Assembly: GCA_026985075.1 (NCBI GenBank)
Contig: JALSQX010000005.1
Span: 21,417-85,416, forward strand
Reading direction: 5' to 3'
Length of the DNA: 64,000 bases
Source: Blastocatellia bacterium
Lineage (GTDB): Bacteria > Acidobacteriota > Blastocatellia > HR10 > J050
Positions 5,994 through 42,919 of the stretch are shown in pieces. The notes beneath the pieces were generated by a model, which was given only the letters and a program-made list of their open reading frames with translations, had not been told where the DNA came from and searched no databases. The stretch's first letter is position 1; the number at the start of each line of letters is the position of its first letter. The position numbers and the translations under genes are program-made.

Positions 5994-6911
5994 TCACCGC
6001 TCGCACGCGCGCAGTCGATTCACAATAGTCTCTCGGTCGTCGCTCGCGCCTTGGCCGATGAAGACCAGTTCGGTCTTTTGCGCAGCGAATTCTTCCAACT
6101 CCCATCGTCCCGTCACATAGTTGAACAGATAGCTTCCTTCGGGAAATCGAACGAATCCCTTGGCTCGATAAATGGCCGTCGGGAGTTCGGCAATGGCGTC
6201 TTCGAACTTGTCCCGATCCAAGAGCTTCTCGCTGGTGAAGGTGAAAGATTGCATGTTGACAGCAGTCTGACGAGAAGAAGGCTTGGGGCGTCCGCCAATG
6301 TCCAGACCGAGGAGTACATCGACATCGACATCGCATCGCACTGTCTTGAAGATGAGAGCCCTTTCGTTGAACGCGCGGACTTGAGCTTCGACGTCTTTCA
6401 CCTGTTCCGCGGTGATGAGATCGATCTTGTTGATGAGGATGACATCGGCCGCCTCCAGTTGCGTTCGAGCGGTGTAGCCGACGGCAGGGTATTTTATACT
6501 GGCATAAGCGTCGACGATACAGATGACGCTATCGAGGCGAACCTGGGGAAGATTATCTTCGACTTCGTACACCAGAGCATCGGCCTCGGCGACGCCAGTA
6601 GCCTCAACGACGATGAACTCCGGGTGCACGGTATCAATGATCTCCGCCACCGCTGCTTCGAATTCTCCGGTGAGCGAGCAGCAGACGCAACCGCCAGCGA
6701 GTTCGACGATCTGGACATTTTCGCCCTGAATGATTTGGCTATCGATAGCGATTTCTCCAAATTCGTTCATGAGCACGGCCAATCGCCGATCGGTCGTTTC
6801 CAATATACGGCGGAGCAACGTCGTCTTACCGCTGCCCAGTGATCCGGTGATGAGAGCAATGGGTGTTTTCATCATTGATGGTCGATTATTGGTCATGGTG
6901 AGAGGAGCCAT
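5994..6911 (-). CDS. COG0523 (CobW/Zng1-like) G3E GTPase metallochaperone.
   Basis: GSGKTTLL P-loop, GCVCCS metal-binding motif and CobW-C-like tail. The true start may be the MMKTP at about 6875. Confidence 0.85.
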   Translation of the reverse strand: MAPLTMTNNRPSMMKTPIALITGSLGSGKTTLLRRILETTDRRLAVLMNEFGEIAIDSQIIQGENVQIVELAGGCVCCSLTGEFEAAVAEIIDTVHPEFIVVEATGVAEADALVYEVEDNLPQVRLDSVICIVDAYASIKYPAVGYTARTQLEAADVILINKIDLITAEQVKDVEAQVRAFNERALIFKTVRCDVDVDVLLGLDIGGRPKPSSRQTAVNMQSFTFTSEKLLDRDKFEDAIAELPTAIYRAKGFVRFPEGSYLFNYVTGRWELEEFAAQKTELVFIGQGASDDRETIVNRLRACER

Positions 6912-6943
6912 GAGTCGATGGTACAGGCTTTGATGCGCATCGG

Positions 6944-8401
6944 TTATCCTTTGATGTTCCCGATAGGGACGAAGCGAACAACCCGTTTACTGATTCCCGC
7001 CAGCTCGGTCGCTTCAATCACGTCATCGATATTCTTGTAGGCCGGACCAGCTTCTTCGGCGAGTCCGGAGTAGGAGACGCTCCGTACGTAAATGCCGCGC
7101 GCCTCCATCTCCTTCTGGAGCTTCTTGCCCTGGAATTGCTTCCGCGCCTTCCGGCGACTCATGGTCCGACCGCTCCCATGGGCCGTGGTATAGAACGTTT
7201 GATCGCCGCTGGGAATGCCAGCGAGGAGATAAGACCCCGTCTCCATACTGCCGCCAATGATGACCGGTTGGCCGGTTTCTCGATAAATGTCGGGAAGTCC
7301 TTCCATGCCCGGACCAAAGGCGCGCGTCGCTCCTTTCCGATGGACGAGGACATCGCGCACCTCGCCGTCAACGACGTGTTTCTCCAGTTTGGCCGTATTG
7401 TGGGCGACATCGTATACCTGATGTAAACCGAGATCGGCCGGATCCTTATGAAAGACGTCAGAGAACACCTCGCGGATGCGATGAAGGATGACTTGCCGGT
7501 TGGCGAACGACATATTGATGCCGCATTTCATGGCCGCAAAATAATCCTGACCCTCGGGCGAGTGGAAGGGCGCACAGGCGAGTTCTCGATCCAGAATCTT
7601 GATCCCGTATTTGGTCTCCATCACTTTGAGAAAGATCTGCAGGTAGTCGGTGGCGACCTGGTGGCCGAAACCACGGCTGCCACAGTGGAACATGATCACC
7701 ACCTGATTGGGGAGCGTGATGCCGAACGCTTCGGCCAGCCGCCGGTCGAACACGTTCTCCGGCTTGGCCACTTGAATTTCCAGGTAGTGATTTCCCGAAC
7801 CCAAGGTACCAATCTGCTTGTAACCGCGTTCCACAGCTTTTTGGCTGATCTTAGAGGCGTCAGCGCCGGCGATACAGCCTCCTTCTTCCGTACGTTCGAG
7901 ATCTTCGGGCCATCCGTACCCGTTCTTGATGCACCAGCGAGCCCCTTGCTCCACCACTTGGCGGAACTCATCGTGGGAAATTCTCACAAACCCGGTGCTT
8001 CCTACGCCGGCCGGGACGCGCTGGAAGAGTTTGTCGACCAGCTCTCGCAGATGTGGTTTCACCTCTTCATACGTCAGATTGGTGAGCACGAGCCGCATGC
8101 CGCAATTGATGTCAAAGCCGATACCGCCCGGGGAGATGACGCCCGTCCGCGCATCCATGGCCGCCACGCCGCCGATAGGGAATCCATACCCCCAGTGACC
8201 ATCAGGCATACAGTAAGCGTACTTGAGAATACCCGGCAACGTAGCGACATTGGTCACTTGGTCGAAGACGCCTTCGTCCATTTCCCGGAGGAGCTTTTCC
8301 GTGGCGTAGATGCGTGCCGGAACGCGCATCCCGGGCTTATGTGTGGGGGGGATCTCCCAAACGGTATCCGAAATCTTCCTGATATCTTCAGGTATCGCCA
8401 T
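6944..8401 (-). CDS. rtcB: RNA-splicing ligase RtcB.
   Basis: GHWGYGFPIGG, HCGSRGFGHQ and AHGSGR motifs. The start at MAIPEDIRK has a GAGGAGGTG SD. The ORF track extends to 8476. Confidence 0.9.
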   Translation of the reverse strand: MAIPEDIRKISDTVWEIPPTHKPGMRVPARIYATEKLLREMDEGVFDQVTNVATLPGILKYAYCMPDGHWGYGFPIGGVAAMDARTGVISPGGIGFDINCGMRLVLTNLTYEEVKPHLRELVDKLFQRVPAGVGSTGFVRISHDEFRQVVEQGARWCIKNGYGWPEDLERTEEGGCIAGADASKISQKAVERGYKQIGTLGSGNHYLEIQVAKPENVFDRRLAEAFGITLPNQVVIMFHCGSRGFGHQVATDYLQIFLKVMETKYGIKILDRELACAPFHSPEGQDYFAAMKCGINMSFANRQVILHRIREVFSDVFHKDPADLGLHQVYDVAHNTAKLEKHVVDGEVRDVLVHRKGATRAFGPGMEGLPDIYRETGQPVIIGGSMETGSYLLAGIPSGDQTFYTTAHGSGRTMSRRKARKQFQGKKLQKEMEARGIYVRSVSYSGLAEEAGPAYKNIDDVIEATELAGISKRVVRFVPIGNIKG

Positions 8402-37104: not shown

Positions 37105-37698
37105 ATGGCCACGACGCCGTCTGCGTTGAACATGGACACTCAACTGGCTCGAGCTTCTGCCGCGGGAGATCACCATGCTTTTGAAACGCTGTACCATCGG
37201 CATCATCAACGAGTCTATAGCCTCTGTCTCCGAATGCTACAGAATCCCGAGGAGGCTGAAGACCTCACCCAGGATGTGTTTCTCCATGTCTATCGAAGGA
37301 TTGGCACATTTCGTGGCACTTCGGCTTTCACCACCTGGCTTCATCGACTCACCATCAATACGATACTAATGTACATGCGGCGGCGGCAACGATGGCGCGC
37401 TGAGCTGTCGCTCGACGCTGGCGACCTTGGCGCGCTCGGAGAGAAAAATGCGCCTTGGCCGGGACGCGAGCTCCGGATAGAACCGATCGATTTGGAACGA
37501 GCCATCAATCGGTTACCCGTCGGCTATCGAGTGGTATTTGTGTTACATGACATAGAAGGCTACGAGCATGCTGAGATCAGCCGATTACTGGGCGTCAAGA
37601 TCGGGACGAGCAAGTCTCAGTTGCACAAGGCGCGATTACAGCTCCGACGAATGTTGACATACAAGGTGGGGGATGATCCAGGCCGGAGTACATCATAG
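37105..37698 (+). CDS. ECF (sigma-70 family) RNA polymerase sigma factor.
   Basis: Regions 2 and 4 present: DLTQDVFLHVY, and VFVLHDIEGYEHAEISRLLGVKIGTSKSQL. Confidence 0.85.
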   Translation: MATTPSALNMDTQLARASAAGDHHAFETLYHRHHQRVYSLCLRMLQNPEEAEDLTQDVFLHVYRRIGTFRGTSAFTTWLHRLTINTILMYMRRRQRWRAELSLDAGDLGALGEKNAPWPGRELRIEPIDLERAINRLPVGYRVVFVLHDIEGYEHAEISRLLGVKIGTSKSQLHKARLQLRRMLTYKVGDDPGRSTS

Positions 37699-38787
37699 AG
37701 CGATGCTCTTTGACGCCTCCTCCTGGTGGGGGCAGCAAGGACCGGGGGGAATGGCCTTACCGTGGGGGCAGAACCGAGGGTGGCCGAGAAATGTGCAGAT
37801 GCGATTGGTTGCCTCCGGACTCAAGATGTGTTCGAAGACGCAGGCTTCCACTTCCGCCTGGTAGTTGGACATACTGAGCGTTTGGGAGAACAGGAGTTCG
37901 GCCAGCCGGTGTCGTCGAATCAGGGCGCGCGCCCGGGCCTCACCTTCCGGGGTGAATGTGAGGCGGTGGTCGCGCAGAGCGATGAGCCGGTTCAGTCGGC
38001 CGGACAGCAGGTACGATTCACCGCGTCGGCCGCAAACTCGTCGAAGACCTTCCAGAGTCAATTGATCGGTCTCTTTTAATATCCACAGTTGTTTCATCAT
38101 CTCGTCGATTGTTTCCTCTACTCTCTCAGAGGTGGGATCGAATCCGGCAATGCGCCCATGCTCTAATTGGATCTGGCGATCGGCTCGCCGCCCTATTTGA
38201 ACGTCATGCGTCACGATGACGATGGTGTGCCCCTCTCGATGCAGTTGAGTGAACAGGTCCATCACGAGGCGTTCATTCTCGGCGTCCAGATTCCCCGTCG
38301 GTTCATCGGCCAATAGCAGAGGAGGCTGGTTGATCAACGCGCGAGCGATGCACACGCGTTGCTGTTCGCCGCCGGAGAGTTCCGATGGGAGATGATGCCA
38401 TCGATCGCCCAAGCCGACTCGCTGGAGCGCCTCCAGCGCTTCCGCTTCATCGACCATGCTGTGGTAATATTGCGCCAGCATGACGTTTTCCACGGCGGTG
38501 AGATAGGGGATGAGGTGGAATTGTTGAAAGATGAGGCCGATGTACTCGCGGCGGAATTCGGTCAACGCGGCGCTATCCAGTTGGGTGAGATCGTGGCCAT
38601 CGATGATGACGCGACCCTCGTCTGGCGTATCCAGGCCGCCGAGCAGATTCAGAAGCGTGGTCTTCCCGGAACCCGATGGCCCCATGATCGAGACCCACTC
38701 GCCACGTTCAATGGTCAAGCTGACGCGATCCAAGGCGCGAACCGAGCCATATTGTTTCGTGACCTCCTCCAACGTAACGAACGACAT
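37693..38787 (-). CDS. ABC transporter ATP-binding protein (MacB/LolD type) fused to a C-terminal DtxR-family metal-dependent regulator domain.
   Basis: Walker [10 protein letters not shown], signature [15 protein letters not shown], Walker [13 protein letters not shown]. Then a DtxR-like module, [10 protein letters not shown]...[10 protein letters not shown]...[10 protein letters not shown], with conserved Cys/Glu/His metal ligands. Confidence 0.85.
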
Positions 38788-38789
38788 GG

Positions 38790-39938
38790 TTACTCCCCTC
38801 TGAGAACCGCCGCCGGTTCAATAGCCAGAGCGCGCTTGATGGGCGCATAAGCGGCCAGACCACAGATCAGCAGGGCAACGCCCAAAATCCCCGGGATGGT
38901 CTCGGGCCTCGGCGAGATATGTGCGTGGAACAGTCGCTCTCCCACAAGTCGGGAACAGAGGACGCCGCCCAGGTAGCCCAACCATCCTCCGAGGAATGCG
39001 AAGATGAAGGCTTCGCTCAAAAAGAGCGAGAGGATCTCGCCTCGCTGGGCCCCCAGCGCTTTCATCAGTCCAATTTCACGCTGGCGTTCGACGACCACGG
39101 CCATCATCGTCGTCATCACGCCGAGCGCCGAGATGATCAAGATGAGCGTCGTCGAGGCGAGCAACATCCACTCGATCTTGCTCAGAATCCGGCCTTCGGC
39201 GAGGGCGATTCTCCTCAGTGGACGTGCCTCCAGGCCTTCCCACCGACGCTCGATGTCACGCGCCAGCTGTTCAACCTGTTCGAACCGCCCAACAGCATTC
39301 ACAGCAAGAAGTGAGACTTCTCCCTCCTGCCTCAGGGCGTACTGAAGGAGAGGGAGATTGACAAACACCTGTCCGTCTTCGGCCTCACCCGTGGTCACGA
39401 TGCCGGTCACGACGAATTCCTCGTTCCAACGCTCCGCATTCAGGCTGAGCCGAAATCGGTCGCCGACGGCCAGGTGAAACCGTCGCGCGATTTCCGAGCC
39501 AATCATTCCCGAGGCGAGATCATCGGTACGGGCCCACTCTCCCTCTACCTGCCAGTATGGATTCACTCTTTTGATCTCTTCGAACCGCACGCCGGCCACC
39601 ATGACAACGTCAGCGGCCTTGTTTGTTTGCATCATCGCCGGGGTGTAAAGGTAGGAGGCCACTGCCACGATCTCGCCGGTCCGGGACAGCGGCATCAGGT
39701 CCTCGAGTCGAGGCTCGAGCATCGTTTTGTTCGGGCTCTTCGGGATCACGATGAGGTTGGCGCCGTAGGTTCTCAGCTCGCGCTTCATTTTACTCTCGAC
39801 ATCATACGTCAGATTCAGTAGCGTCGCGGCGGCCGTAACCCCAACGCTCAGCGCGACCAGGGCGATGACCACCTTGGACGCCCGACGCGTCAGCGATCTG
39901 AGCAGAATGCGAAAGAAGAGTTTCTGCCTTCTCGTCAT
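38790..39938 (-). CDS. FtsX-family ABC permease (MacB/LolE-like).
   Basis: N-terminal TM, large periplasmic domain, C-terminal FtsX helices. Confidence 0.8.
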   Translation of the reverse strand: MTRRQKLFFRILLRSLTRRASKVVIALVALSVGVTAAATLLNLTYDVESKMKRELRTYGANLIVIPKSPNKTMLEPRLEDLMPLSRTGEIVAVASYLYTPAMMQTNKAADVVMVAGVRFEEIKRVNPYWQVEGEWARTDDLASGMIGSEIARRFHLAVGDRFRLSLNAERWNEEFVVTGIVTTGEAEDGQVFVNLPLLQYALRQEGEVSLLAVNAVGRFEQVEQLARDIERRWEGLEARPLRRIALAEGRILSKIEWMLLASTTLILIISALGVMTTMMAVVVERQREIGLMKALGAQRGEILSLFLSEAFIFAFLGGWLGYLGGVLCSRLVGERLFHAHISPRPETIPGILGVALLICGLAAYAPIKRALAIEPAAVLRGE

Positions 39939-41212
39939 GTGCTCCTCAGAATGTCAACCGGCCGCAAACGAAGCAACATTCGGACCGGAGCGGCGCAGCC
40001 GATGAGGGTGATGAGTTCGGCGGCGATGAGCGAGATGGGAAGGATCAGGAGATTGACGCCAATATGAACGCCGAAGACCGCTTGTCCGATCACCTGAGCG
40101 AGAAAGACGCCAATGGCGCCCCCGATCACCGCCCCGATGAGGCCGATGATGAGAGCCTCGGCCAAAAATAAGCGGACGACCGGGCTATTACCCGATCCAA
40201 TGGCCTTCAGGAGTCCAATCTCGGAGCGGCGTTCGAGCACCATGGTCATCATCGTGCTCATCACCGCCAGAGCGGCGGCCATGAGGGCGAGCGCCACAAT
40301 GATCATCATCATGAGCATCACCTTATTCAGGATGCGCCCTTCGGATTCAGCGACCCGGCGAATCGGCTTCACCTCGGCGGTGGGAAAGATCTCGTTCAGT
40401 TGGAAGGCGATGGAGCTGATAAAGGGCGTGCAATACCAGCTCTCGAATTCCTCAGGCGATAGCTCCCGGGGCGAGCGTCCCAATCGCTCGTAGACCTTAT
40501 CTTCAGGGGTCGTCAAGGCGCTCACCAGGATGCGCTCCACCTGCCCCTGCCGATGCGTGAGCTCCTGCACGATGTCCAGCGTCGTGAACAGCTGATCGTC
40601 CTCGGCTCCTCCAGTGGCTACGATTCCAGCGATCGAGAAGGAAGCCCGTTTCTCTCCGACCTCGATCGTGATCCTTTCTCCCGGGCGAAGCTGAAACGCC
40701 TCGGCCAGCGCGCGCCCCACCATGACCTGTGGTTGCTCGGCATCGTCCGCGATCCACGCGCCGGTGACGTGCCAATATGGCGCCAGGTGCCTCATGCCCG
40801 TCACGACCGTCTCCCCTTGACAGGGCACCGGTCGGCTGAACCATGTGCCCACCAGAGTGACGATTCGGCCGCGAAAGGTCGCCGAGGTAGTCAGAAAGGG
40901 AGTGAAGGCGAGGATATTATTACGCCAGAAAATTGTCTTGATTTTGGGAATGAGGGGTTCGGGCAGGAAAGTCTCTCGCCCCAAGCGACTCACATCTTCG
41001 CCGCCCACTTCCAGGGGGAGCGTCCGGCCCTTGGGAATGATGACCAGATTGGCACCGAAGGCTTTCAACTCGCGATTGATTTTATCGCCGATATCCAGAG
41101 CGATGGTGGTCATGGCCACGGCCACGCTGGTACCTAATACCACCGCTGACGTGGCAATGGCTTTGCGCCGTCGCTGTCGTCGGAATGATTGTGCCACTAT
41201 CCGGAAGAACAT
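39935..41212 (-). CDS. FtsX-family ABC permease (second copy).
   Basis: Same architecture. Start/stop overlaps the neighbouring permease. Confidence 0.8.
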   Translation of the reverse strand: MFFRIVAQSFRRQRRRKAIATSAVVLGTSVAVAMTTIALDIGDKINRELKAFGANLVIIPKGRTLPLEVGGEDVSRLGRETFLPEPLIPKIKTIFWRNNILAFTPFLTTSATFRGRIVTLVGTWFSRPVPCQGETVVTGMRHLAPYWHVTGAWIADDAEQPQVMVGRALAEAFQLRPGERITIEVGEKRASFSIAGIVATGGAEDDQLFTTLDIVQELTHRQGQVERILVSALTTPEDKVYERLGRSPRELSPEEFESWYCTPFISSIAFQLNEIFPTAEVKPIRRVAESEGRILNKVMLMMMIIVALALMAAALAVMSTMMTMVLERRSEIGLLKAIGSGNSPVVRLFLAEALIIGLIGAVIGGAIGVFLAQVIGQAVFGVHIGVNLLILPISLIAAELITLIGCAAPVRMLLRLRPVDILRST

Positions 41213-41247
41213 CTTGAGGCGCCCACTCTTGTGCTGGACACATCACC

Positions 41248-42669
41248 TCAGTGCGCGTATTTTCCTGGATCGCGCCCGAACGCTGCCCTACAGGATGGCA
41301 TGTCGCAGAAATAGTACGTCTCGTCCTGGTACGTCATCCTTGGCCGGGCCTCGGTGATGCGCACCTTCATCCCACATACTGGATCGATGGCCTCCAGCGT
41401 CCCGGTCGGAGTGAACAGCGTCTCGCCCTTTCGTAAGTCGTTGACGGCGATGACCAGCGCGTCACCCTCAACATGTGAGGGAAGAGGAATGGGGTTGCAG
41501 CCGCCCGAGCGTCCGATGGTAGAGGGGTGAATATCGGCCGCGCAGTTCAGACAAACGATCGTCCGTCCCTCTTGCACATATCCATAGTCGCCGCAGATTT
41601 GACAGGCATCGAATGCGGTGCCGATTTTCCCCTCCGGTGTCTTCATGGTGAGAAAGCGAATGGTCACATCGCCAATGCGATATCCCCATCGGTGAAGGGC
41701 GCCATCGTCGATCTCGGCCAGGGGAATCCTCACCCATCCGCCCTCAGATTGAATCAGCACGGGAGGATCAATCGTCCGCGAGCGGTGCGAGTAGGCATAA
41801 TTGACCGTCAGCGTGGTCATGACCAGAACGCCGAGCGCGGCCATGGCCCGTCGCCAGCGCTTCGCCCGGCTCAACTGGGCCATTCGTTTGCGTCGCTCGG
41901 GTCCTCGCAGGGTTGCCAATTCCGCCCATTGTGCCCGCTCCTGACCACTGGGAATGACGGTGAGAATGAGAGGGAGAGCGAGGATCACCAGGATGAACAG
42001 AACGTCATGTTTGACCATTGGTCCGATGAGCGCCATTTCATGGCGCCCGAGTGGAATGAGACCGGCTTCGGCTAACTCGTGGACTCCACCAATCAGGAGT
42101 TGGAACGAGAGGACCATCAGAACGATTCCGGTGACCTTGAAGAAGCGCCCCAGGTCCATGTGTAGGGTTCCCTTGAGCAGTGAGACGGCCAACCCCACGG
42201 CCAGCCCCAGCCCGAGCATCGCGCCGAGGACACTCATCAGGCCTTCCGTAGTCAGATTGATCGCACTGAGAAGGAGAACGGTCTCAACGCCCTCCCGGAA
42301 GACCATGAGAAAAGTAAAGGCAATGAGCCCCAAGGAGTAGCGCGATCGCGCGTCGGTCGCGAGAGCATTGACGCGTTGCTCGATGTGGCCCTTGAGGTGC
42401 CGGGCCGTGCGCCACATCCACACAACCATTGTGCCGACAAAGAAAGCCGCCAGGAGCATAACCACGCCTTCAAACACCTCTTCGTTGACGCGGAGATCGC
42501 CCAATGCCCAGGCGCCGAGTGCGCTCGCCCCCACGGCCAGTCCCAATCCGGTATACACGGATCGACTGAGGTCTTTGCGCCCGACTTTCTGCAGATACGT
42601 CAGGATAATGCCGATGATTAACGCCGCCTCAACACCCTCTCGCAGCGTGATGACCAGTGATTCCAGCAT
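41248..42669 (-). CDS. FTR1 (EfeU-like) iron permease fused to a four-Cys DUF2318-like domain and a C-terminal YHS/TRASH metal-binding domain.
   Basis: Two REGVE(A/T) motifs in the TM helices. CQICGDYGY...CLNCAADI. DPVCGMKV...YYFCDMPSC. The likely start is MLESLVITLREGVEA, although the ORF stays open to 42888. Confidence 0.8.
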   Translation of the reverse strand: MLESLVITLREGVEAALIIGIILTYLQKVGRKDLSRSVYTGLGLAVGASALGAWALGDLRVNEEVFEGVVMLLAAFFVGTMVVWMWRTARHLKGHIEQRVNALATDARSRYSLGLIAFTFLMVFREGVETVLLLSAINLTTEGLMSVLGAMLGLGLAVGLAVSLLKGTLHMDLGRFFKVTGIVLMVLSFQLLIGGVHELAEAGLIPLGRHEMALIGPMVKHDVLFILVILALPLILTVIPSGQERAQWAELATLRGPERRKRMAQLSRAKRWRRAMAALGVLVMTTLTVNYAYSHRSRTIDPPVLIQSEGGWVRIPLAEIDDGALHRWGYRIGDVTIRFLTMKTPEGKIGTAFDACQICGDYGYVQEGRTIVCLNCAADIHPSTIGRSGGCNPIPLPSHVEGDALVIAVNDLRKGETLFTPTGTLEAIDPVCGMKVRITEARPRMTYQDETYYFCDMPSCRAAFGRDPGKYAH

Positions 42670-42670
42670 G

Positions 42671-42685
42671 AGATCATTTTGAAAA
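42671..42685. promoter_or_regulatory. AT-rich palindrome TCATTTT-g-AAAATGA next to the start codon of the FTR1 fusion gene.
   Basis: 7-1-7 inverted repeat, seen directly in the sequence. Confidence 0.4.
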
Positions 42686-42919
42686 TGAATATCAACTTCA
42701 AAGAAGGAGAGACTACCATCGGTCGACCAGAAAGTCAAGGGGGGTCGCCAATGGGCTGTGGTGAATCGCCGATGACGGGCGACCGTTTCGACTCGCCGAG
42801 AGTGAGTGTTTCCAGATTGGTGAAGCCCCTGCCTCGACCGTCGATCAATTTGACAGTGGTGAGGTTCAGACCTATATTTTGCGGGCAATGGCCATTGTCG
42901 GTACGAGGAGAGAGGAGCT

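Follow-up and report, generated by a model that had tools for sequence, protein, structure and literature searches.

A DtxR-like module fused to the ABC ATPase of a P19-less Fet/Fls-type iron-uptake operon: a candidate metal sensor

Introduction

The closest described relatives of the locus studied here are the FetMP-FetABCDEF clusters (Fet-Fls/Flp, cFtr1-P19) of Campylobacter, E. coli, Salmonella and Yersinia, in which a DUF2318(+YHS) protein, two FtsX/MacB_PCD permeases and an ATPase follow in this order behind a Fur-type box (PMC6083913, PMC10783030). Their ATPase, FetD, is required by C. jejuni for growth when iron is limited (PMC10783030). Two further groups of proteins are relevant. Firstly, metal sensors of the DtxR family bind their metal through Cys102, Glu105 and His106 in DtxR (PMC4805248), and through His76, Glu80, Cys123 and His125 in site 1 of the streptococcal regulators MtsR/SloR (PMC9253540). 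Secondly, some ABC ATPases carry regulatory domains. The domain of ZnuC dimerises on the transported metal and locks ZnuBC, with transcription controlled by Zur, a Fur-family protein (PMC12236471), and ModBC and MetNI are trans-inhibited via domains attached to the nucleotide-binding domains, the fold of the ModC domain being that of the ligand-binding domain of the repressor ModE (PMC4245157). Here we describe an operon of the Fet/Fls kind whose ATPase is fused to a DtxR-like module.

Results and Discussion

Organisation of the operon

The window (the whole stretch of DNA analysed, 64 kb) contains four tightly packed minus-strand ORFs, 37693-38787, 38790-39938, 39935-41212 and 41248-42888, separated by gaps of 2 nt and 35 nt and by one overlap of 4 nt. 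The preliminary description had read them as an FTR1 fusion, two FtsX permeases and an ABC ATPase, and both the ORFs and Pfam agree with this. The span that it gave, 37693-42888, is correct as ORF coordinates, but for the first gene the ATG at 42669 is the most probable start, not the TTG at 42888, since the homologs are 420-487 aa long and the TTG extension contains the conserved operator. The first gene (41248..42669) encodes a predicted 473-aa fusion of an FTR1/EfeU-type iron permease (~42046-42669; Pfam FTR1, E 6.6e-38; NCBIfam EfeU, E 7.7e-45), a periplasmic FtrD-like DUF2318 domain (~41413-41712; E 5.2e-28) and a YHS domain (~41251-41388; 28.6 bits, just below the cut-off of 30.3). Two REGVE (REXXE) motifs and a CxxC-x13-CxxC-x14-C motif are found in this protein as well as in 119 of 120 homologs. 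The next two genes encode FtsX/MacB-type permeases, a FetB-like one of 425 aa (permease A, 39935..41212) and a FetC-like one of 382 aa (permease B, 38790..39938), both with Pfam FtsX and MacB_PCD domains and respectively 40% (over 424 aa) and 37% identical to FetB and FetC of an E. coli plasmid.

The operon pairs gene for gene with this plasmid cluster (FetM core, 32% identity; FetA DUF2318+YHS, 37%; FetB; FetC; FetD, 62%), which bears out the earlier assignment to the Ftr1/P19-associated FtsX-ABC kind, though P19 and the thioredoxin, by which the published systems are defined, have no gene in the window or in any of the 86 related loci examined for them. We read the operon as a compact variant of the Fet/Fls iron-uptake machine that does without P19, with the permease pair probably forming a heterodimeric FtsX (MacB-type) unit.

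The fused ATPase

The ATPase is 364 aa long. Its nucleotide-binding domain (residues 1-214; 38146..38787, minus strand) matches Pfam ABC_tran at residues 19-164 (E 9.5e-39) and contains Walker A (GPSGSGKT at 36), the signature (LSGGE at 137), Walker B (LLLADE, ending in D161-E162) and the H-loop (H194), all invariant across 40 sequences. The nearest NCBIfam models are FtsE/LolD/MacB, every one under cut-off; it is the 231-aa FetD/Fls ATPase of the E. coli plasmid FetMP/Fls cluster to which the core is 62% identical. The ATPase thus appears catalytically intact and orthologous to FetD. The domain is followed on the minus strand by a flexible linker (residues 215-222; 38122..38145), which has the lowest pLDDT block (58) of the full-length model and 39% mean identity, by the DtxR-type module (residues 223-352) and by a variable tail (residues 353-364 and the stop codon; 37693..37731) with pLDDT <50 at 357-364 that is unaligned or absent in most homologs.

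Each of the 120 best homologs, 312-378 aa long and 55-100% identical, contains both PF00005 and PF02742, and the same in-frame fusion occurs in 73 of the 80 best genome loci. Among these best relatives and loci the fused ATPase nearly always belongs to the same four-gene operon, and mostly to Acidobacteriota; the database search proposed earlier has recovered the same architecture. Judged by these sequences, the ATPase-DtxR fusion is real and widespread in soil Acidobacteria. The literature searched held no description of an ABC ATPase fused to DtxR, in line with the preliminary description, which knew of none, and the fusion is apparently undescribed so far. The same P19-less operon also exists with plain ATPases of 219 aa (on a Planctomycetes contig) and 245 aa (on a Verrucomicrobia-like contig), which argues that the DtxR module is an add-on, dispensable in related operons.

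The DtxR-like module

The dimerisation/metal-binding domain (residues 279-352; 37732..37953, minus strand) is matched at residues 279-347 by Pfam Fe_dep_repr_C (E 3e-25, profile positions 1-69 of 70), i.e. the region does not belong to an unrelated family, and its PDB phmmer match is IdeR/DtxR (E 4.5e-12). The equivalent of the DtxR N-terminal domain (residues 223-278; 37954..38121, minus strand) consists of a conserved acidic helix 1 followed by a poorly conserved winged-helix-like part. PF01325 does not match this half even at E<=10, although a complete two-domain DtxR fold, winged-helix-like part included, is predicted for the module. The earlier view that the ATPase carries the whole DtxR wHTH and metal region therefore stands for the metal region, while the wHTH half would be present as a fold only; of the profiles suggested for checking it, ABC_tran and Fe_dep_repr_C were found and PF01325 was not. 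The pTM of the full-length model is 0.59 despite two confident domains, and the model suggests two rigid domains on a flexible tether, as in known regulatory domains.

Residues were mapped on HMMER alignments with IdeR/DtxR, which contain no gaps, so that adding 214 to a DtxR position gives the position in the protein; conservation was taken over 120 sequences. C316, E319, H320 and E297, corresponding to C102, E105, H106 and E83 of DtxR, are invariant, and H293 (DtxR H79) is kept in 101/120. The equivalents of MtsR/SloR site 1 are H293, again in 101/120, and the invariant E297, C340 and H342. Two literature-defined metal sites of the DtxR family are thus conserved in the module, and metal binding is predicted. 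The DtxR ligands described earlier as conserved are thus present. The H98 position is a Glu (E312, 91/120), and Met10 has no conserved Met counterpart among the 120 sequences, M230 being Val/Leu in most members. The Met10 helix holds conserved acidic residues instead (E224, E225 and D228; the acidic set of helix 1 also includes E239). In the metal-binding domain H293, E297, E312, C316, E319, H320, C331, H336, C340, H342, C351 and C352 are invariant or nearly so; C331, H336, C351 and C352 are invariant besides the two known sites.

Mean identity is 70% in the nucleotide-binding domain and 67% in the metal domain, but only 31.5% in the HTH region, which carries lineage-specific insertions/deletions of 10 aa and 30 aa. 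The HTH part looks degenerate and under relaxed constraint, the least constrained part of the protein, and sequence-specific DNA binding by the module is doubtful. It might still occur, since the wHTH fold is retained and the helix-3 equivalent has a net charge near neutral to slightly positive (+1.2) in the fused family.

A possible mechanism and its alternatives

We propose that the FTR1 permease with its REXXE motifs, DUF2318 and YHS, the FtsX permease pair and the ATPase work as one iron-uptake machine. The C-terminal 140 residues of the ATPase are derived from a DtxR protein, with the dimerisation domain and its metal sites kept and sequence-specific DNA reading probably lost. The module would be a cytoplasmic sensor of divalent metal, most likely Fe2+, one copy being attached through the flexible linker to either nucleotide-binding domain of the pair. 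At elevated cytoplasmic Fe2+ the bound metal would rigidify or dimerise both modules beneath the ATPase pair, which would hold the nucleotide-binding domains non-productively; the ABC motor would stop, and with it the periplasmic step powered for the FTR1 permease, i.e. trans-inhibition. If true, the iron transporter switches itself off once the cell has enough iron. This is our preferred reading, and we consider the chances evenly balanced that the module is such a transporter-tethered metal sensor giving post-translational feedback on the transporter, and not a repressor. We infer metal binding, the identity of the metal, dimerisation in the complex and the direction of the effect on the ATPase. 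To our knowledge, no trans-inhibition has been described for MacB-type (type VII) ABC systems. The target of the proposed switch-off is undefined, since the substrate and task of FetBCD are not known (PMC6083913, PMC10783030).

Instead of sensing Fe2+, the Cys-rich invariant set could bind Zn in a structural role or ligate an Fe-S cluster. In the former case the module may be a constitutive clamp that only joins two ATPase subunits and senses nothing. Stable dimers form without metal in several members of the DtxR family (PMC4805248), C331/H336/C351/C352 resemble a structural Cys3His site, and the hydrophobic residues L295, L299, F300 and F318 at DtxR interface positions are invariant. We nevertheless consider this unlikely: related operons and the canonical Fet/Fls systems have ATPases without a clamp, and both regulatory sites of the DtxR family are conserved (H293 in 101/120), these being exchangeable sensor sites in characterised members (PMC4805248, PMC9253540).

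The metal-loaded module of the membrane-bound ATPase might also repress its own operon, besides or instead of regulating transport. The predicted two-domain fold with its winged-helix-like part and the slightly basic helix-3 equivalent agree with this, as does a conserved palindrome that precedes the first gene. In the window this palindrome, TGATATTCATTTTCA (42680..42694, minus strand), lies 11 nt upstream of the start codon and is the sole match in 64 kb (0.04 expected). A possible sigma-70-type promoter, TTGACT (42738-42733), 17 nt and TAGTCT (42715-42710), at 42710..42738 on the minus strand, is kept in the closest relative; it is weak, scoring below the threshold of the consensus scan. 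The family consensus of the palindrome, AGTTGCAAAT-N-ATTTGCAACT, amounts to two TTGCAA hexamers 11 bp apart, and can also be written as AGTTG-N11-CAACT (21 bp). With <=4 mismatches allowed, TGATAATNATTATCA is matched in 45 of 70 upstream regions, where shuffled sequences would give 3.65, and in most loci the palindrome is 11-60 nt upstream of the first gene. A PWM scan of ~1 Mb of flanking DNA found the conserved operator only in front of this operon, so a dedicated local regulator may still be considered. However, the operator has the 7-1-7 form TG..AAT-N-ATT..CA, which we take to be the typical Fur-family box, whereas the DtxR/IdeR box is TTAGG-type; it is unchanged across lineages whose HTH regions, the putative recognition regions, differ greatly and carry large indels; related palindromes precede two operons whose ATPase lacks the DtxR module; and one relative has an operon that opens with fur and is itself preceded by a palindrome of this type. 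Together with the missing PF01325 match, this makes repression by the module improbable. Since the HTH part is the least constrained and varies between lineages under the same operator, and the operator is Fur-type, with related palindromes also upstream of two operons without the module, we prefer metal-dependent regulation of the transporter to a transporter-repressor. Transcription would be controlled separately by a Fur-family repressor bound to the palindrome; the identity of the repressor we infer.

There is also a slim chance that the module is an iron acceptor or chaperone at the cytoplasmic exit of FTR1, taking incoming Fe2+ and passing it to acceptors in the cell, with ATP hydrolysis perhaps driving release. 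It has several conserved metal sites on a flexible tether near the membrane, is strictly linked with the FTR1 permease in genome loci, and no transported substrate is known for the ABC part of Fet systems (PMC6083913). However, no chaperone role is known for the DtxR fold, operons with unfused ATPases work without the module, and one fused ATPase (locus L010) is an orphan with no FTR1 neighbour. Similarly improbable is that C316, C331, C340, C351 and C352 bind an Fe-S cluster or act as redox thiols, so that the ATPase answers to Fe-S status or oxidative stress and not to free Fe2+. Five Cys and three His are invariant within 40 residues, the terminal CC is not found in DtxR, IdeR or MntR, the motif recurs in 123 of the 149 closest representative clusters, and periplasmic thiol-redox chemistry is tied to Fet systems (PMC10783030); yet four of these residues form ordinary mononuclear metal sites in characterised relatives. 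Finally, the fusion could have been produced by an assembly error or a frameshift between an ATPase gene and a DtxR gene, as the preliminary description had considered, but this is refuted: the window ORF is uninterrupted, all 120 best protein matches have both domains, the 73 in-frame loci are independent and from different assemblies, and a 137-aa DtxR entry (P0129) that first resembled a separate gene beside such an operon (L089) is really the end of a 357-aa ORF that starts with GTG and runs without interruption.

Comparison with known systems

The ATPase resembles FetD/FlsC (Flp) over the whole nucleotide-binding domain, and the Fur-type box and neighbour order are shared with the Fet/Fls clusters. 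The canonical ATPase, however, has no DtxR extension and stops where the linker begins here; the window operon has neither P19/FetP nor a thioredoxin/TlpA gene, its FTR1 permease and FetA periplasmic domains form one polypeptide, and nothing in it corresponds to the large N-terminal part of FetM.

With the two-domain core of DtxR/IdeR/MntR (e.g. IdeR 2isy, DR2539 8pvt) the module shares Pfam Fe_dep_repr_C and the ligands C102, E105, H106, H79 and E83, and it has equivalents of the CPHG Cys/His that serve as ligands in MtsR/SloR/ScaR. Unlike these regulators it is attached to an ABC ATPase, has no SH3/FeoA-like third domain, has acidic residues for Met10 and Glu for H98, adds the invariant C331, H336 and terminal CC, and its HTH part is invisible to the profile and poorly conserved, with doubtful DNA binding. 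Its nearest free-standing relatives, an uncharacterised clade of DtxR-like+FeoA proteins, are 42-46% identical over the whole module, share the invariant Cys/His set and the CPHG..IP.G.CC motif and likewise lack a PF01325 match. They too accompany an Fe2+ importer, their genes following immediately after feoB in 6 of 7 loci, which agrees with the sensor proposed above, but they are ~220 aa long, with a C-terminal FeoA domain and a markedly acidic HTH-equivalent region, and come from Thermodesulfobacteriota, Nitrospirota and Myxococcota, not Acidobacteriota.

The zinc-sensing domain of ZnuC is likewise a C-terminal Cys/His metal-binding domain on a metal-uptake ABC ATPase, and its mechanism (PMC12236471) is the one proposed here, although its fold and motif (CxxxHxCC, ~60 residues) are unrelated, and ZnuBC, a type II importer, transports the metal itself, whereas in the MacB-type system the metal presumably passes via the FTR1 permease. 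ModC (TOBE) and MetN (C2) also place a ligand-binding domain after the nucleotide-binding domain, and their ligand blocks closure of the ATPase dimer, to which our proposal may be likened; they differ in fold, in binding anions or amino acids and in being type I importers. The fold shared by ModC and ModE parallels the presence of a DtxR-type module on the ATPase.

Operon structure and the ATPase core

Upstream of the ATPase gene (37693-38787, minus strand), the ORF listing shows three further minus-strand ORFs, i.e. the FTR1-fusion gene (41248-42888), a first FtsX permease gene (39935-41212) and a second one (38790-39938). The four are tightly packed, with gaps of 35 nt and 2 nt and one 4-nt overlap, and thus constitute an operon. 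Their identities, an FTR1 permease fusion, two FtsX permeases and an ABC ATPase as proposed in the preliminary description, were borne out by Pfam. The first product matches FTR1 (E 6.6e-38) and the FtrD-like domain DUF2318 (E 5.2e-28), its YHS match is marginal (28.6 bits against a cut-off of 30.3), and its match to NCBIfam EfeU (E 7.7e-45) lies under the equivalog cut-off. The permease contains two REXXE motifs (REGVE), found also in 119 of 120 homologs, and residues 356-391 of the 473-aa protein form a CxxC-x13-CxxC-x14-C motif, the same type that was reported for the DUF2318 of Campylobacter FetA (PMC6083913). Both middle products combine FtsX with MacB_PCD in Pfam, i.e. they are FtsX-type partners with a MacB-like periplasmic core domain. 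The listed TTG start of the first ORF is 73 codons upstream of an ATG at 42669, which is almost certainly the true start, because the homologs are 420-487 aa long and a conserved operator lies inside the TTG-start extension. The YHS tail (41251-41388) occurs only in a subset, namely the window and its J050, Blastocatellia-like, Planctomycetes and Verrucomicrobia relatives (among them loci L007 and L090-L092); most acidobacterial homologs (420-435 aa) have no YHS.

The ATPase itself has the full ABC motif set, i.e. Walker A, Q-loop, LSGGQ-type signature, Walker B with the catalytic Glu, and H-loop. ABC_tran covers residues 19-164 (Pfam, E 9.5e-39), and GPSGSGKT at 36, Q88/Q89, LSGGE at 137, D161-E162 and H194 are invariant in 40 sequences. 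By these motifs and its FtsX/MacB_PCD partners the protein can be assigned to the MacB/LolD/FtsE-like (type VII) subgroup; the top NCBIfam models are FtsE, LolD and MacB, each under its own equivalog cut-off.

The neighbours are unrelated to the operon: a convergent ECF sigma factor, a divergent phosphoribosyltransferase, a metalloenzyme-superfamily protein (Pfam PF01676), a TPR/Fis-HTH protein and a response regulator. The ECF sigma factor gene (37105-37698, plus strand) and the ATPase gene share 6 nt at their 3' ends (37693-37698), and no terminator-like site was found between the two. Rfam and tRNA scans of the window gave no matches, and tblastn found no fur gene in it.

The DtxR-like module and its putative metal ligands

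Directly behind the nucleotide-binding domain (NBD), after an 8-residue flexible linker, residues 223-352 form the DtxR-like module. Fe_dep_repr_C (PF02742) is matched over the whole profile at residues 279-347 (Pfam, E 3e-25), HMMER aligns the module to the PDB sequences of IdeR and DtxR with E-values of 4.5e-12 to 3e-9, and residues ~264-347 align to both without gaps, so that a residue number equals the DtxR number plus 214. An AF2 model of residues 215-364 (pLDDT 90.4) superposes on IdeR over 136 of 150 residues, the helix-turn-helix (HTH) part included. The resemblance to a whole DtxR repressor that had been proposed holds for the metal domain by profile and may extend, at the level of the predicted fold, to the HTH half; profile searches, which recovered ABC_tran and Fe_dep_repr_C, gave no PF01325 match there even at E<=10. 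DSSP of the model shows one long helix at the place of DtxR helices 2 and 3. In the full-length model both domains are confident, the pTM is 0.59 and the linker is weak, therefore we regard the linker as a flexible tether.

Conservation was followed in the best 120 matches to the ATPase and in subsets of them. Twenty residues are invariant (E239, R291, R292, R294, L295, E297, L299, C316, E319, H320, C331, H336, P337, C340, P341, H342, I346, P347, G349 and C351), and nine more are nearly so: G343 and F300 (119 each), C352 (118), D228 and W235 (117 each), E225 (114), E224 (107), H293 (101) and E312 (91). The iron site of DtxR consists of Met10, Cys102, Glu105 and His106 (PMC4805248). The last three correspond to the invariant C316, E319 and H320, as the preliminary description had read them, but Met10 is not conserved, and helix 1 has conserved acidic residues instead, which resembles the situation in MntR-type sites. 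M230 was considered as the Met10 equivalent and rejected, being Val or Leu in most of the 120 sequences, and the gap-free alignment points to the conserved acidic residues in the helix. DtxR E83 corresponds to the invariant E297 and H79 to H293 (kept in 101 of 120), and the position of H98 is a Glu. Site 1 of MtsR and SloR, formed by His76, Glu80, Cys123 and His125 (PMC9253540), maps to H293, E297, C340 and H342 (C340 and H342 being C123 and H125 of SloR) by a gap-free ScaR alignment, if the PDB chain is taken to start without Met1. DtxR, IdeR and MntR lack equivalents of C331, H336, C351 and C352.

The best-supported reading is that the module is a transporter-tethered metal sensor. That it is instead a constitutive dimerisation clamp with a structural zinc seems to us unlikely.

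Fused members of the Terriglobales/Sulfotelmatobacter type have a conserved, His/Cys-rich insertion of ~30 residues in the wing (..PHPP.AHDH+PF.NPCHDALKP..; loci L042, L043, L049, L054, L067-L070, L072, L074, L075, L079, L080, L082, L083 and L086), which may be an additional metal-binding loop.

Reality and spread of the fusion

The best 120 ATPase matches in a collection of 5.8 billion proteins all carry both PF00005 and PF02742 (312-378 aa, 55-100% identity). A scan of one genome per species found at least 593 stretches that encode a relative of the module, and in 73 of the best 80 of these an NBD lies immediately upstream in the same frame. An assembly or frameshift artefact joining two genes, which the preliminary description had named as one possible case against the fusion, is excluded, since both domains are found in the best 120 proteins and the fusion is in frame in these 73 loci. 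Among the same best 80, the order FTR1::DUF2318, FtsX, FtsX, ATPase is found in every fused locus with enough upstream sequence except one (L010). The locus labels are overwhelmingly acidobacterial (Terriglobia, Acidoferrales, Bryobacterales, Polarisedimenticolia); other phyla are scattered among them and may partly reflect binning effects. The closest genome locus among the matches listed is that of Acidobacteria bacterium J050 (83-94% protein identity). Hundreds of members are stored in the databases with only generic names; the few that are named among the best 120 are called "ATP-binding cassette domain-containing protein" and come from Acidobacteria, Latescibacteria and Polarisedimenticolia MAGs. 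In the literature that the search could reach, most subscription journals lying outside it, no mention of an ABC ATPase with a DtxR module was found.

The exceptional L010 is the sole orphan among the 73 fused loci: its ATPase::DtxR gene (6344-7453) lies among riboflavin-synthesis and NADH dehydrogenase genes, and neither FTR1 nor FtsX genes occur within 6 kb of it. Two database proteins were considered as cases of gene fission ("Rosetta stone") and rejected. P0129 (137 aa), encoded downstream of an FTR1-FtsX-FtsX operon, is publicly called an iron-dependent repressor, but its start is mis-called, and it is the C-terminal end of a fused ORF that begins with GTG and encodes 357 aa (L089, 5341-6414); P0126 sits on a 1.1-kb contig without context. 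Because of such mis-calls the fusion will look rarer in databases than it is in reality.

The operator and the question of DNA binding

Ahead of the FTR1 gene there is a conserved palindrome: 45 of 70 upstream regions have a site within 4 mismatches of TGATAATNATTATCA, against an expected 3.65, and many of the sites are at a fixed place, 27 nt before the start. The extended PWM consensus is AGTTGCAAAT-N-ATTTGCAACT; in the window and ~45 loci the operator thus consists of two palindromic TTGCAA hexamers 11 bp apart. The only copy in the window, TGATATTCATTTTCA, lies at 42694-42680 (minus strand) within a 21-bp operator at 42677-42697. In Bryobacteraceae loci the operator takes the form AGTTGCAAC-N-AGTTGCAAC. 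Compared with Fur, PerR and Zur boxes, we take the 7-1-7 form TG..AAT-N-ATT..CA to be of the Fur-family type, and the operator-binding protein is presumed to belong to that family. In one relative fur is the first gene of the operon and is preceded by a similar palindrome. In L092 (6034-7008), a locus of the fused type, the FTR1 gene is directly preceded by a MerR/rubrerythrin-like gene and a Cys-rich small ORF of 71 aa, and an AT-rich Fur-box-like stretch, ATTATGATTATGAGAATAA, is found between these two, ~250 nt upstream of the FTR1 start.

The module might still act as a bifunctional repressor that also binds DNA at its own operon. In favour of this, the DtxR fold is predicted to be retained and, within limited flanks, the operator is seen at this operon only: a PWM scan of ~1 Mb of flanking DNA found, outside FTR1 upstream regions, just four identical sites, inside Bryobacteraceae loci, although the flanks are short and the scan is thus uninformative on the regulon. 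Against it, in addition to the missing PF01325 match, the HTH and wing have a mean pairwise identity of 31.5%, whereas the NBD reaches 70%, the metal domain 67% and helix 1 61%, and the HTH region differs between lineages by a 10-residue insertion between the equivalents of helices 2 and 3, by the 30-residue wing insertion, or by deletions. The operator nevertheless stays constant across these lineages, and 7-1-7-like palindromes (TGAAATCCGATTTCA; TGAGATAGAGTCTTA) are also found upstream of two operons with unfused ATPases (L090, L091). The net charge of the fused family (mean -0.8 in the HTH region and +1.2 in the helix-3 equivalent) is not decisive on DNA binding. That the operator is constant while its putative reader varies speaks for a separate regulator of the operon rather than the module, and the low HTH identity with its insertions and deletions, the Fur-type operator and the palindromes at the two unfused operons argue indirectly against the module as repressor; we consider that role improbable.

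Free-standing relatives

Profile searching among 1.84 billion representatives yielded 194 clusters under E 1e-30. In the best 149 of their representatives the motif CP[HD]G..IP.G.CC is common to 123, most of which are ~220 aa long, with the module at the N-terminus followed by a FeoA domain. Seven such DtxR-like+FeoA genes are among the best 80 of the at least 593 genome loci. In six of them feoB is the gene immediately upstream (L017, L030, L065, L071, L078 and L085, e.g. 6992-7660 in L078), and three of these six have fur nearby. The feoB-linked proteins have the motif CPHG..IP.G.CC, no PF01325 match, and an acidic HTH equivalent (mean net charge -2.9); a clearly acidic HTH region is found only in this free-standing clade, in contrast to the fused family. 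DtxR homologs linked to feo are usually taken as feo repressors (PMC8516115), and the clade may consist of ordinary feo repressors; alternatively, its members may be protein-level Fe2+ sensors or regulators of FeoB. With either reading there is a specific association between the module and importers of Fe2+, and this supports Fe2+ as the likely ligand of the module. More tentatively, we speculate that the CPHG..IP.G.CC clade could comprise transporter-attached sensors of Fe2+ (or Fe-S) that are not transcription factors and have been wired at least twice to ferrous-iron importers, through a FeoA domain beside FeoB and by direct fusion to the ATPase of the Ftr1-associated FetBCD machine. If this holds, iron status would be passed post-translationally, via a MacB-type mechanotransmission ABC, to the periplasmic uptake step; trans-inhibition would then be described for the first time in a type VII ABC system, and there would be a handle on the role of FetBCD.

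Comparison with the Fet/Fls systems

Gene by gene, the proteins of the operon match a cluster on an E. coli IncF plasmid, with the same order of FetB, FetC and FetD. Identity is 32% to the FetM core, 37% to the periplasmic part of FetA (DUF2318 + YHS), 40% to FetB, 37% to FetC and 62% to FetD. The E. coli cluster is annotated as an FTR1 protein (628 aa), an iron transporter (P19, 175 aa), an Fe-S-containing protein (DUF2318+YHS, 455 aa), two FtsX permeases, a 231-aa ATPase and a TlpA reductase. There are, however, several differences. Firstly, the E. coli ATPase ends at the equivalent of residue ~222. Secondly, the FTR1 permease and the periplasmic domains of FetA are one protein in the window. 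Thirdly, the gene that follows encodes a periplasmic thioredoxin/TlpA (or an FMN-binding protein) in Fet-Fls, as opposed to the convergent ECF sigma factor here. Neither P19/FetP (tblastn with E. coli FetP) nor thioredoxin/TlpA was matched in the window or in 86 related loci, and P19/FetP is absent from the called-gene tables of the loci too. Because both are missing, the operon is, judged from its gene content, a compact P19-less derivative of the Fet/Fls cluster. The proposed kinship with Ftr1/P19-associated FtsX-ABC modules therefore stands as regards FTR1 with its REXXE motifs, the DUF2318 motif and the FetB-C-D order, but not as regards P19 and the thioredoxin.

The P19-less FTR1::DUF2318::YHS, FtsX, FtsX operon also exists with ordinary ATPases, of 219 aa in a Planctomycetes MAG and of 245 aa in a Verrucomicrobia-like contig (L090, 2622-7113, and L091, 7001-11460), and with a fused ATPase in another MAG. 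Since the same compact operon occurs with plain ATPases, the DtxR module is an accessory part added to it, as a regulatory domain would be, and these two loci are natural "minus-domain" controls.

In Campylobacter jejuni fetA, fetB, fetC and fetD are each required for growth under iron limitation, and the cluster has a Fur box, but the task of its ABC part is still unexplained (PMC6083913, PMC10783030). The role of the FtsX-ABC part in Ftr1/P19-type uptake is a question also in E. coli, Yersinia and Salmonella, where as in Campylobacter the systems matter for virulence. An iron-sensor domain joined to the ATPase would argue that the ABC motor is a control point of iron entry. The fusion offers a natural experimental handle and a testable lead on the task of FetBCD and the restraint of Ftr1-type uptake. 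Members of the fused family are abundant in soil Acidobacteriota; this phylum is dominant but poorly understood, and its iron homeostasis has hardly been studied.

Proposed mechanism and comparison with known sensor domains

If the module is a transporter-tethered sensor, two modules would hang beneath the ATPase dimer; when Fe2+ is plentiful they would bind it and dimerise or stiffen, and the metal-bound modules would block productive closure of the NBDs, transcription being handled by Fur. Here we infer metal binding, the identity of the metal, dimerisation and the sign of the effect. Two other roles, an iron acceptor or chaperone and an Fe-S or redox sensor, both strike us as having little probability.

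That the ATPase of an ABC uptake system can carry a ligand-sensing domain is already known. In ModC, MetN and ZnuC an extra ligand-binding domain follows right after the NBD, and the same arrangement, with predicted ligand binding, is found in the ATPase of the window. ModC and MetN are precedents of trans-inhibition, and the domain of ModC has the same fold as the repressor ModE (PMC4245157); in ZnuC a zinc-sensing domain locks ZnuBC and Zur controls expression (PMC12236471). The fold of the module differs, however, from the TOBE, C2/NIL and ZnuC zinc-sensing domains. If the proposal is true, three things would be new: the use of the DtxR fold for this purpose, the response to iron, and the control of a MacB-type ABC. 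Self-regulation of uptake by a metal, represented up to now by ZnuC and zinc, would then extend to iron and to MacB-type ABC systems, and a repressor fold, that of DtxR, would have been reused as a regulatory domain of a transporter, which mirrors the pair of ModE and ModC.
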